Source: Eledone cirrhosa (Eukaryota). From it: 64,000 nucleotides of DNA. Shown piece after piece: positions 54,673-58,988 of the stretch. The notes under the pieces are model-generated. The model saw only the letters and a program-made list of their open reading frames with translations, was not told the DNA's origin and did no database searches. Both the position numbers and the translations under genes were made by a program. Location of the stretch: the NCBI GenBank assembly GCA_964016885.1, contig OZ024742.1, positions 255,316,001-255,380,000 of the forward strand, in the 5' to 3' direction. Each line of letters begins with the position of its first letter. Positions within the stretch are counted from its first letter, which is position 1.

Positions 54673-54775
54673 ATGCAGCTGTTTGTATCCAATTTGGTCG
54701 GGAAGACCCTGGCCATTGATATGAATCCTTCAACCACCACATTGGATGTGATGGATTCCATTACAGCCAGGGAGG
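54673..54775 (+). CDS. RPL40: UBL-eL40 fusion (UBA52-type), coding exon 1: MQLFVSNLVGKTLAIDMNPSTTTLDVMDSITARE(G)
   Basis: Acceptor TTTCAG at 54664, 8-nt UTR, ATG at 54673, donor G|GTAAGT. 103 nt; aligns without gaps to ubiquitin residues 1-35. Confidence 0.93.
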
Positions 54776-55596
54776 GTAAGTATTTTACTGATATTTTCTG
54801 CTTATTCTTTTATTAGCTGTTCTTTCCTTGTTGCTCATAGGAATCACCATCATTCCATGTCCATTTTTCAATGCTGGTAAGGGCTGCAATGGTGTGAAAT
54901 TAGATTAATTGGAGAACCACTTCTTGTTTGTTCCATTTTAGGCATGGATATGATGATGATATCTTAAACATTAATGGATACATGTATCATCATCATCGTT
55001 TAACGTCTATCTTCCACGCTAGCATGGTCTTTATTCTCTTTTGGTGTTACACCAAAATTGTTTTAGGTCAAGACCAGAAATTTATTTTTATAGGAGATAA
55101 TGGGATGGTAAAATGCTCCCAGTCAACTCTAAAGTGGTAGTTCTTGTATAACAAAAATGTACCCAGTACATCCTGTCAGATGGTTGGTGTTAAGAAGGGC
55201 ATCTAGCTGTAGCAACCATGGCAACCTGTGCCATTATTGAAAGGGGGTGCGTCTTATTCAGCCTGAAAATATTTAACAATTTCATTGCCATATTTCTAAC
55301 GATACTGTTTGTGATGTCAGTTATGCCTACTATGGAAAAGTGGGTGTAAAATGTTTGAATTCTGAAGTTTCACATTGTAGTAAAGAAATTTAAGTCTACA
55401 CCGTAGAAGATAAACTCTTAACATTTTATAATTCTGAAAATAGATTTGTAGTGTATATACTAGTAGTCAGATGGTAAACATTTACAGTATTAGAGACTAA
55501 TGTTTCATATGATGTAGTCATTGTGCTGTTTTATTTTGCTAATGTGGTTTCATGTGATATAGAATGATAAGTTAAAGTTATTCCATTATTTTTCAG

Positions 55597-55683
55597 GAAT
55601 TCCACTAGACATGCAACGACTTGTGTTCTCAGGCAAACAATTAGATGAAACTGCCAGACTGTGTGAATATGGTGTTGGTGCAG
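55597..55683 (+). CDS. RPL40: UBL-eL40 fusion, coding exon 2: GIPLDMQRLVFSGKQLDETARLCEYGVGA(G)
   Basis: TTTTCAG| acceptor and G|GTAAT donor. 87 nt, phase 1-1; aligns to ubiquitin residues 35-64. Confidence 0.95.
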
Positions 55684-56589
55684 GTAATGTTGGTGTTTTT
55701 GTTGTTTTATTTTCAAGTTGCTTAGGTGGTTCCAGTGTATCATGGTGAAAAATTTTCATCAGTTTTGAGTTGTACATGGAAGAAGTTCCAGGGCCTGAGT
55801 GGTATGATAGTGTGGAGAGGAGTGTCACTGAAACTGAAGAGAAAGGTGCATACTCCATGTGTGAGAAATACTATGATGGTGACACATGGGTGATGAACAT
55901 TTTTGCTGGGGGAAAATGGAAATTAGAATAGTTTGGTGAATAAGTAGTGTACTGCTCAGGAAGCGGAAGACATGTGGATGATAGAAATAGAGCCAATGAT
56001 GAGTGAGATGGTACTGACAGTGTAAGAGGTATAGAGCCAGTGATGAATTCTGTGCAAAGAAGTGGAATGAGATGATTGGGTTGTGTGTTGAAGAAAGATG
56101 AATATGGATGTCGAGGAAGGGAAAGGCAAAGACAGAGCTAGCTAAACATAAAAGCTGGGATGAGTGTAGAGGATAGGGCAAACTAGAGAAGCTTATTTCC
56201 TACTAGGGCAGAGAAAATGACTTTGAAGTGCTTGTGTTTGAAATAGGTAGTATTTGATGAGAAGGTGTAGTCCAAGCAGTATGTTTTAGAAGTTTGCTTC
56301 ACAACATGGTTCAGTGTTTGTTCCGACTGCAGCACCATGAGCAATTGTTTTATTCTCTGGTGTCATCTGTGTTTGATTTGGTTGGTAGAAATTTTGCGGT
56401 ATCTCATAGTGTGTATATGTATGCATGGCCAAATAGTTAGGGTGTTGGGCTCCTGGGCAGAGTATTGTTTTTCAGGAAGACACTTCATTTCATGATGAAA
56501 TTGGAGACCCCATTATTAAAACACTTTAAAAACCTGCATATGTGTGAGAGCTGTAAATTTAATTTGCTTTTTCATATATATATACATAT

Positions 56590-57360
56590 AGATTATCATC
56601 ATCATACGTCCATTTTACCAGGTTTGAATGTGTTGGGCGGGTATTTTCTTTTATGACATCCTTCCATTCATTGTGTTCGTTTGTCGTTTCTGTGAACTTC
56701 AACAATTTGAGATCAGCTCTTCTACTGTGGCTTCCTTCCATTAGGATTTCTTGGCACTTCAATCATCCATGCACATCATATGTAAATACTGCTTGCACAT
56801 AACGTCTGATTCCTCTTATACCCAATTTTTCTCTTAAGTCACTGTTGATTTTCACATTTCACACACATTAACATTGCACATTTATTGAAGCATGCTTGCA
56901 TTCGTTGGCCATGTTTCACTACCATGCAACTTTTCACATTGTATGCAAACATCATTCAGCTGGGGCCTTTTTTCTTAGAGAAGCCTTTTGTTAAGTTGCT
57001 CCCTGAACATTCTCTATCCTGTTTTTATTTTAGCTACAATGCTATCAGAGCACTATCCATTATTAATTAGATCACCTAGGTAGCAGAAGCTATCAACCAC
57101 TTCTATGGATCCTTCCTAGGATTGTAAAAAGTTTATATTTTATTGATGCTCCTACTATCCCTGTAAAAAAGTTTACCTTTTATGTTAGTCTGCCTGCTAT
57201 CGCAGTACACCTTGTGTACCTAACATTTACATTGTTCAGAGTTTCTGCATGTCAAGCAGGCAACTTTCCTGATCAGATATGTGTGTTATTGTTTACATTT
57301 AGCTGCTGCTTTTGATAGTATTTTGTTTAATTCGGCTTCCTGTAGTACTTTAGCACAGAT
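56590..57360 (-). mobile_element. Degenerate RTE LINE 3' part in intron 3
   Basis: Reverse complement matches the 9100-9975 region (GTGGTTGATAGCTTCTGCTACCTAGGTGATC, KCQEILMEG) with a GAT tail. Confidence 0.75.
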
Positions 57361-57610
57361 TTTTTTAGTTCACCTTGACTAGTGGACAGATCAGCGAGTA
57401 AATACTTTGATGCAGTAATTGTGCAAAGAGTCATTATCATTATTTTGGTATATCAATATTATTTTTAAAAATGATTTACACCTTGTGCCTATGTAAGTTT
57501 AGCTGGCCTCGTAGGCGTTTTAATGATCAAAGCCCATCCAATCATAATATACAGTTTTGTTCATAAATTATATTTTCTGAATTCTTATTTAAATATATTT
57601 TGTCTTGCAG

Positions 57611-57713
57611 GAAGTACTCTTCATTTGTTGCTCCGCCTTCCCGGAGGTATTATTGAGCCTAGTTTACGTATGTTGGCATCTAAATACAACTGTGAGAAGA
57701 TGATTTGCCGAAA
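57611..57713 (+). CDS. RPL40: UBL-eL40 fusion, coding exon 3: [34 protein letters not shown](K)
   Basis: TTGCAG| acceptor and AA|GTGAGT donor. 103 nt; contains the di-Gly junction and the start of eL40. Confidence 0.97.
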
Positions 57714-58894
57714 GTGAGTATAAAATTATTGCTGTTAGTAGCTAGATATGGTATATTGTACAGAAGGAAAGAGAGCTGCTCTGGAGCAAGGAATACTCAA
57801 TCTCATTCTTACAGTAAAGAAGTCTCTCTAGATGAATCAATGACCAACAACTTGTTATTGATACCACAATAAAGCACCTAGACCACAAAGTCAAATGGTA
57901 GTGGTGGTGTTATAAAAGTTAAAAGAATTCACTTGATATGAGAAATGTTGGGTTTGATTCTTCTGTCCACTTATTTTCATTTTCTGAAGTATTTTACGGG
58001 TTTTCTTAACTATTATTTATAGCCATTGATTATTGTTATGGTCATTTACATTGGGATGCACATATTTCAAATTAGAAATTTTGTTTTGGTGTGCTGCAAG
58101 AAATTGAACCTAACAAAGGAAATAAATAGATAAATAGAGGGATGCTATACTAAAGAGGACTTATCTAACTCGTACAACCATGGGAAAACAATGGAAATAA
58201 TTCATCATAATGTTATGGAAGAACCATTGCTAACTTGTTTCAAATGCCATCTTATTAAAAAATATTTTACTAAATCCCTTCAAATTCTGTTTTCAAATTC
58301 TGTTTAAAATAAAATTTCTTAAAGACTTGTGTTTTTCGATAAATATAAACATTTAAAAACAAATTTTGTAGTGTAGAAGCAGGGTGCAGTTTGGTTAAGA
58401 GGGATTTGGCTGCTATATTTAGTAGCTGCTTGGAAATTTTGTTGTGGGAATAGATTAAATTCCTTCATTTAGTTTCATTAGTGTTGTCTTTTACCACATT
58501 AGCAAGGCATTCTTAATACTATAAATTAAATCACAAAGTCTTTGCTCTAACACTGCAAATGTTCACAATAATCTGACAACCAATATAGATACTCTAAATA
58601 TTTGAGTTAACAAATCTAAATGTTTATAGTTAAAAAGATTTTCCTACCATTAACTTGATGTAGTGTTAACTTTTTAACATCTATTTTCCAAGTTTTCGTA
58701 TATTATATATGTAATGGGGCGTATATGAAGCATTAGCTGCTAAATGATTGTCGAATGGGGATCACTGATGAAGGATTAACTGTCCTGAAATATATGGCAT
58801 AATCACAGCATATAAATATATTGTATATGCTTCTATATACGCCTATTTTGAATCACTATTAGTGCTATTGCTAATATATATACATTTTTTTCAG

Positions 58895-58988
58895 ATGCTA
58901 TGCTCGTCTCCATCCACGTGCGACCAACTGCCGGAAAAGGAAATGTGGACATAGTAACAATCTGCGTCCAAAGAAGAAGCTAAAGTAA
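58895..58988 (+). CDS. RPL40: UBL-eL40 fusion, last coding exon: [31 protein letters not shown]
   Basis: TTTTCAG| acceptor, 94 nt ending in TAA at 58986-58988. Canonical eL40 zinc-finger C-terminus. Total CDS is 387 nt (128 aa). Confidence 0.97.

Follow-up and report, generated by a model that had tools for sequence, protein, structure and literature searches.

The 64,000-nucleotide stretch of Eledone cirrhosa DNA analysed here (GenBank assembly GCA_964016885.1, contig OZ024742.1, positions 255,316,001 to 255,380,000; hereafter the window) carries a gene in which the large-subunit ribosomal protein eL40 is fused to a strongly divergent ubiquitin-like leader, rather than to ubiquitin itself. 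This cephalopod leader is real and clade-wide, and the literature searched contains no mention of it in animals, with leaders of its kind already described in protists and on small-subunit proteins. The reading that we prefer, at a probability of a little over six in ten, is that a conserved ubiquitin-like leader has taken the position of ubiquitin within the same gene, and that it would fold like ubiquitin, aid eL40 as a chaperone only, and be cut off at its terminal Gly-Gly.

An earlier note on this DNA had proposed a four-exon model with GT-AG introns and a product of 128 amino acids, and the same protein is obtained here. On the forward strand, exon 1 (54665..54775) places the initiating ATG at 54673, 8 nt past an AG acceptor, and carries leader codons 1-34 with the first base of codon 35, while exon 2 (55597..55683) carries codons 35-63, including R42, V44, and K48. 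Exon 3 (57611..57713) holds the end of the leader, with P74 at 57640-57642 and Gly-Gly at 57643-57648, followed by eL40 from 57649, and exon 4 (58895..58988) supplies the remainder of eL40 and the stop codon. The coding parts (54673-54775, 55597-55683, 57611-57713, and 58895-58988; 103+87+103+94 nt) form a single reading frame, open for 128 codons up to its stop, across three introns, all of them GT-AG, encoding a 76-residue leader ending in Gly-Gly and a 52-residue eL40. Searched exon by exon against Pfam, exons 1 and 2 match ubiquitin at E 0.018 and 6.5e-05, both below the curated cut-off as fragments, and exon 3 matches Ribosomal_L40e at E 2.7e-10; exon 4 gives no match in this search, and matches PF01020 at E 6.2e-14 in the genome search.

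Compared with the organism's own polyubiquitin unit, the leader is identical at 38/76 residues with no gaps, reproducing the count previously given against ubiquitin, and differs at 104-110 of 228 nt. The eL40 tail is identical to that of octopus and cuttlefish (52/52), and matches sheep records P0112 and P0128 at 45/52, the count that the note had reported for human eL40. The near-identity to the organism's ubiquitin that is expected of the UBA52 family is not seen in the leader, which has LRLPGG for LRLRGG, a hydrophobic patch of L8-V44-L70 for L8-I44-V70, and lysines at K11 and K48 only, five of the seven ubiquitin lysines being lost from the octopod leaders. The FUBI hallmarks I13H and Q49P are likewise absent, with L13 and Q49 in their place and eL40, not eS30, as the partner. 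With a diverged ubiquitin half, a conserved eL40, and canonical ubiquitin encoded elsewhere, the gene belongs to the divergent UbL40 class. The leader has a net charge of -1 to -3, and eL40 of +14.

Within the 3.0-Gb genome, PF01020 is found in two places, both of them exons of this gene (19/19 candidates scored), and the cuttlefish-type orthologue P0002, used as query, gives 11 matches, comprising seven polyubiquitin units, three exons of this gene, and one Ub-eS31 exon. Neither search, with counts that are lower bounds, finds the canonical Ub-eL40 paralogue that the note had suggested looking for, and no eL40 (UBA52-type) gene other than this one, apparently present in single copy, was found in the genome. 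The polyubiquitin gene (G000:C4:146003342-146004955) contains seven units that encode identical proteins, 2-18/228 nt apart, with a 3-residue terminal extension; its unit has the same letters as ubiquitin in the PDB, and the exons of the Ub-eS31 gene also match ubiquitin. Since canonical ubiquitin is encoded by these two genes, the eL40 fusion gene is not needed as a source of ubiquitin. A separate FUBI-eS30 gene with the tail RMLGG (G000:C1:303892297-303894715) and a NEDD8-like gene each occupy a locus of their own.

Four sequencing runs (X1-X4) cover the stretch. In X4, one contig with a depth of 1924 joins all three introns at GT..AG, with intronic contigs of the same run at a depth of about 2-7, whereas none of the three intron joints is present in X1-X3. 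The depth contrast and the joints together give the pattern of a spliced transcript rather than that of a processed DNA copy, and the spliced messenger that the earlier model implies is borne out to this extent, in a run that is not on record as RNA. Among 23 substitutions listed across the stretch, one is coding, synonymous, and located at 58913, with none amino-acid-changing.

Cephalopod orthologues and predicted fold

A protein search with exon 1 returns one match, the Octopus bimaculoides eL40 fusion P0001, whose leader is identical to that of the window at 64/76 residues. Further members of its cluster come from O. vulgaris/sinensis and Argonauta hians, a second cluster represents Sepia pharaonis, and P0003 is a partial relative, such that the collection of orthologues proposed earlier finds the same leader in all four of these taxa. 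The cephalopods form one group in the leader tree (99/93), with the window sequence placed among the octopods. Leader identity is 48-66/76 between cephalopod genera and 73/76 between two Octopus species, or 62-73/76 within octopods and 51-56/76 between octopods and the Sepia cluster, whereas the eL40 tails of six full-length cephalopod sequences are all identical (52/52). The normally conserved half is thus the fast-evolving one, as the note had inferred.

Across eight cephalopod leaders, 42/76 positions are invariant, 27 of them with the residue of ubiquitin and 15 with a new one that has become fixed (including K27M, K29S, K33R, I44V, V70L, and R74P), with no indels and with Gly-Gly intact in all. 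Residues 66-76 show no variation, and P74 is present in 7/7 database cephalopod sequences as well as in the window. A leader that is common to octopods and cuttlefish, with 42/76 positions invariant, is not the product of free drift in one lineage. The proposal that this lineage had turned Ub-eL40 into a FUBI-like fusion therefore stands as to the divergence of the leader and its predicted fold, but the change is clade-wide and constrained, and the retention of R42, R72, K48, and an I44-like patch distinguishes the leader from FUBI. Bivalve leaders are canonical, at 76/76 to ubiquitin in Mytilus and 75/76 in Mactra, which together with the leader shared by octopods and cuttlefish places the switch after the bivalve split and before the parting of octopods and cuttlefish, within a sample made up of octopods, cuttlefish, and bivalves. 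The H88 rRNA break of octopus was considered as a cause and rejected, as cuttlefish carry the same leader. A degenerate pattern of the leader-eL40 junction gives 0 matches in metagenome contigs. Leader codon 57, in exon 2, encodes Cys in the window but Ser in ubiquitin and in the seven remaining cephalopod sequences, with no alternative letter in any run.

The structural model of P0001 has the strand and helix order of ubiquitin, with a pLDDT of 84-91 per block over residues 1-70 and a poorly predicted eL40, and in a fold search of the PDB with this model the top 50 matches are all ubiquitin chains, with an rmsd of 0.6-1.4 Å for the single-ubiquitin chains in the top five. The beta-grasp fold that the note had suggested checking is hence predicted for an orthologue, whose leader would retain the architecture of ubiquitin. 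The eL40-rich record P0029 is modelled at a pLDDT of 52, again with eL40 poorly predicted, and a PDB search with this low-confidence model gives 0 matches. P0001 is present letter for letter in the ESM Atlas, where its nearest clusters are ordinary Ub-eL40, and is identical, letter for letter, to chain m of the octopus ribosome structure 9EHO. This accession is given in an octopus ribosome preprint (PMC13321053), in the main text and single supplementary file of which “L40” does not appear. 9EHO is not among the 50 PDB matches listed for the P0001 model, which may only reflect the age of the structure library.

A comparison of surface positions, using 11 USP-contact residues named in PMC10611586 and an assumed set of buried residues, finds 9/11 contact residues invariant versus 20/46 other surface positions (Fisher p 0.04), or 11/11 versus 23/46 (p 0.002) when P0003 is left out. 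Given the assumed set and the non-independence of positions, this is only a hint that an enzyme may still read the tail and patch of the leader.

Proposed processing and fate of the leader

We propose that the leader escaped homogenisation with the ubiquitin genes on the coleoid cephalopod stem, would there have fixed about 15 changes, and then came under constraint. By analogy with yeast, it would support the expression and folding of the very basic eL40 in cis. In yeast, the ubiquitin moiety raises the yield of eL40 and SUMO substitutes for it in part, with uncleaved Ub-eL40 impairing Tif6 recycling, 60S maturation, and elongation (PMC8122580; PMC6721733). The cephalopod leader would be cut off by a deubiquitinase that tolerates a residue other than Arg at position 74, freeing eL40 at the leader Gly-Gly before it works in the 60S subunit. 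USP16 and USP36 are the first candidate proteases, since both cleave FUBI, which has Leu at the R74-equivalent (PMC10611586). With R74 and five of seven lysines lost, the freed leader would be a poor substitute for ubiquitin, and would probably be degraded rather than conjugated; free FUBI is possibly cleared via a C-degron pathway (PMC10611586). A role as chaperone only is favoured over that of a new modifier.

Several points weigh against this reading. Cleavage of the leader, its protease, and any conjugation are hypothetical, and Pro74 is a harsher change than the Leu of FUBI and might block or slow processing; no mention of R74P was found among 15 of the 35 papers matched in a literature search. 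The leader retains more of the binding face of ubiquitin than FUBI does (R42, R72, K48, L8, H68, and V44/L70), and what it retains would suit an E1 no less than a deubiquitinase. The fold model is that of an orthologue with 64/76 identity, and its alignment took in canonical ubiquitins; the surface comparison involves few related sequences and contiguous positions. Moreover, the four runs come from one study, none of them, X4 included, is on record as RNA, and the genome-search counts are minimum values.

The same retained face bears on the possibility that the leader, once cut off, serves as a modifier peculiar to cephalopods, which would be charged by UBA1 (or UBA6) and attached to proteins via G76, with P74 hindering its removal by ordinary deubiquitinases. 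UBA1 is contacted by R42, R72, and R74 of ubiquitin, with R72 the specificity residue and R74 touching the crossover loop (PMC12355090); with two of these three arginines kept, R42 and R72, conjugation of the leader could still occur. Gly-Gly, R42, R72, K48, L71, L73, H68, and the V44/L70 patch are invariant in 8/8 cephalopod sequences, new surface residues (D28, S29, A32, R33, D51, and E52) are likewise fixed, and the leader is produced one-to-one with a ribosomal protein. However, the crossover-loop contact R74 is lost (PMC12355090), 5/7 lysines are gone in the octopod sequences, the retained face is equally required by a processing protease, and the enzymes that conjugate FUBI remain unidentified (PMC8354635), so that we regard a modifier as unlikely. 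Quite unlikely, too, is that P74 blocks or slows cleavage and that the large subunit retains the leader next to its GTPase centre, altering elongation in the manner of a Giardia eS31 leader. P74 is fixed in all seven database cephalopod sequences and the window, the divergent Giardia leader does remain on eS31 (PMC8122580), and octopus ribosomes are reported to translate ~30% more slowly than those of squid, a difference attributed to something other than the H88 break (PMC13321053), but the leader Gly-Gly is invariant where the uncleaved Giardia form has an altered junction, uncleaved Ub-eL40 impairs Tif6 recycling and elongation in yeast (PMC8122580), and the text and supplement of the octopus ribosome preprint make no mention of L40 (PMC13321053). 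As cuttlefish share the leader, it cannot alone explain the difference between octopus and squid, the latter being outside the sample.

That the leader derives from a different ubiquitin-like gene such as NEDD8, through conversion or a fresh fusion, is very improbable. S46, G64, and V61 match the organism's own NEDD8-like gene, with 24/53 compared positions identical, but 27/53 match ubiquitin and the gap is wider in the relatives (22 versus 26, and 19 versus 26); the leader keeps R72 where the NEDD8-like gene has Ala, and is fused where NEDD8 is stand-alone. In addition, mis-spliced records of canonical animal Ub-eL40 (P0105, P0125, P0046, and P0029) break after codons 34 and 63, as the exons do here. 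That the locus is a pseudogene, an assembly error, or a silent paralogue gains something from the lack of a run on record as RNA and from genome searches that give lower bounds, yet the open frame, the GT-AG introns, the spliced contig of X4, the 0/23 listed substitutions that change an amino acid, the orthologues in octopods and cuttlefish with eL40 at 52/52, and the identity of P0001 to chain m of 9EHO largely refute it, leaving a chance close to negligible. A bolder and doubtful proposal is that coleoids possess a ubiquitin variant of their own, made 1:1 with the 60S subunit, in which the arginines recognised by E1, the hydrophobic patch, and K48 are retained and the tail bears a proline. 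It might serve as a deubiquitinase-resistant mark or be retained beside the GTPase centre, and would then add a clade-wide layer of control over proteins.

Sequence surrounding the gene

Upstream of the coding exons, a candidate promoter on the forward strand (51010..51073) has ATGGCGG at 51010 and CCGGAAGTG at 51029 and 51065, these being the sole exact occurrences of both motifs in the window on either strand. We take them to be YY1-like and ETS/GABP-like sites, respectively, of the sort found in ribosomal protein promoters, with a presumed function. The CpG maximum (12) among 20 bins spanning 50001-55000 falls in the 250-nt bin from 51001. A candidate non-coding first exon, read from the sequence (51086..51110, forward strand), starts with a pyrimidine tract, presumably 5' TOP-like, and is followed by a GTAAGA donor; it has no cover among the contigs of X4 and is thus unconfirmed. 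A candidate polyadenylation signal, AATAAA, is likewise read at 59020..59025 on the forward strand. Elsewhere in the window are broken frames at 8176-9494, 37738-39771, and 47556-49368 that we assume to resemble an RTE-type LINE reverse transcriptase, fragments at 16461-16838, 42127-42576, and 43289-43687 that are presumably PIF1/Helitron helicase-like, and a fragment at 260-745 that we take to resemble the end of an LTR-element integrase.

Divergent eL40 leaders in other lineages

A search scored on eL40 alone returns 1007 proteins, and in the best 120 of these the leader ends in the canonical LVLRLRGG in 85 and otherwise in 35, several of the latter being mis-predicted. At least 36 tick records from the matches and their clusters (P0017-P0025, P0027, P0033, P0134-P0157, and P0172) have the tails RLVGG (30), RLLGG (5), or RLMGG (1), with a divergent leader in all records seen from both hard and soft ticks (Ixodes, Ornithodoros, Amblyomma, Dermacentor, Rhipicephalus, Haemaphysalis, and Hyalomma). 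These tails are FUBI-like, and the leaders of 11 tick matches are 24-36/76 identical to ubiquitin, with 1-3 lysines in the five counted. Further divergent eL40 leaders occur in the delphacid planthoppers Laodelphax and Nilaparvata, and in Seison nebaliae (P0079, P0178, and P0122). Leaders identical to ubiquitin (76/76) are present in the mite Halotydeus and in four records from insects or springtails. Among 17 changes fixed in the six database cephalopod leaders, 10 are found in 0/17 tick rows, K33R in 16, and E64G in 17. The canonical ubiquitin of bivalves, mite, and insects, and the few shared changes, suggest that the cephalopod, tick, planthopper, and Seison leaders likely arose separately, although the leader trees, which place cephalopods and ticks on one side of a branch (85/84 and 79/75, neither starred), are also compatible with one origin.

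Either R72 or R74 is lost in 8/8 groups with a divergent leader, groups that were chosen by eye and in which drift of half the sites could suffice; that this loss may serve exit from the ubiquitin pool is a lead only. Ten Logan records (P0067, P0098, P0103, P0106, P0109, P0118, P0120, P0124, P0127, and P0129) have leaders at about 45-51/76, N-terminal extensions, and NLCGG or SLRGG tails, and the seven of these records that were placed in leader trees group together (97/94). Outside the cephalopods, Pro74 is found in the ENA cluster P0088, at 65/76 to ubiquitin (11 residues away), and in the partial record P0083, labelled Salmonella and probably a eukaryotic contaminant.

The earlier note had limited divergent heads to small-subunit proteins, a limit contradicted by published cases of divergent Ub-eL40 in Giardia and in two lineages of Plasmodium. 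Once found only in Giardia, divergent UbL40 was extended to the Vivax and Ovale lineages, at 14.5-30.3% divergence, by Dalhuisen et al. 2023, who termed it extremely rare and in whose main text “tick” and “Ixodes” are absent (PMC10457151). A 2021 review dropped domains less than 80% identical to ubiquitin before its survey (PMC8122580), a filter to which such divergent leaders are invisible, and a 2024 review, in its available text, mentions FUBI and Giardia only (PMC11354881). Among the matches listed in our literature search, no paper describes a divergent leader on eL40 in any animal, cephalopods and ticks included, with most subscription journals outside its coverage.

The cephalopod fusion shares with canonical Ub-eL40 (UBA52; yeast Ubi1/Ubi2) the 76+52 layout, Gly-Gly junction, conserved eL40, intron places, and predicted fold, and differs in a leader at 38/76 to ubiquitin, in R74P, I44V, and V70L, and in having lysines at 11 and 48 only. 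Catic and Ploegh in 2005 and Catic et al. in 2007 reportedly described divergent eS31/S27a leaders in Caenorhabditis and Giardia (uncleaved), with the fold kept and a chaperone role proposed. The cephalopod case is the mirror image of these, with eS31 keeping canonical ubiquitin and eL40 bearing the variant. As in Giardia and Plasmodium UbL40, the ubiquitin half is freed and eL40 fixed, a burst of change is followed by slowing, the fold is predicted to be kept, and ubiquitin comes from other genes, but here the bearer is an animal clade, divergence is 50% compared with 14.5-30.3% in Plasmodium, and most lysines are lost where the Plasmodium variants mostly keep all seven (PMC10457151). FUBI-eS30, encoded by FAU and processed by USP36/USP16, is similarly a divergent Gly-Gly leader on a basic ribosomal protein, with most lysines lost and a non-Arg residue at the 74-equivalent, whereas the present leader has large-subunit eL40 as its partner, lacks I13H/Q49P, keeps R42, and has Pro rather than Leu at position 74 (PMC8354635, PMC10611586).

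Despite a leader that is not ubiquitin, such proteins go by the name “ubiquitin-60S ribosomal protein L40” in databases, and the sequences are public under these ordinary names. The open question behind the Ub-eL40 and Ub-eS31 fusions is whether they match ubiquitin supply to ribosome output or provide a built-in folding aid. Here the supply role has been given up in an animal clade, with the fold and Gly-Gly kept, and separate switches of the same type seem to have occurred in ticks, planthoppers, and Seison. What calls for explanation is the fixed Pro74 in a binding face that otherwise resembles that of ubiquitin; this residue predicts either an unusual protease or a retained domain. The repeated natural experiments of these clades separate ubiquitin supply from the ribosomal role of the leader, and reveal the residues which that ribosomal role needs.

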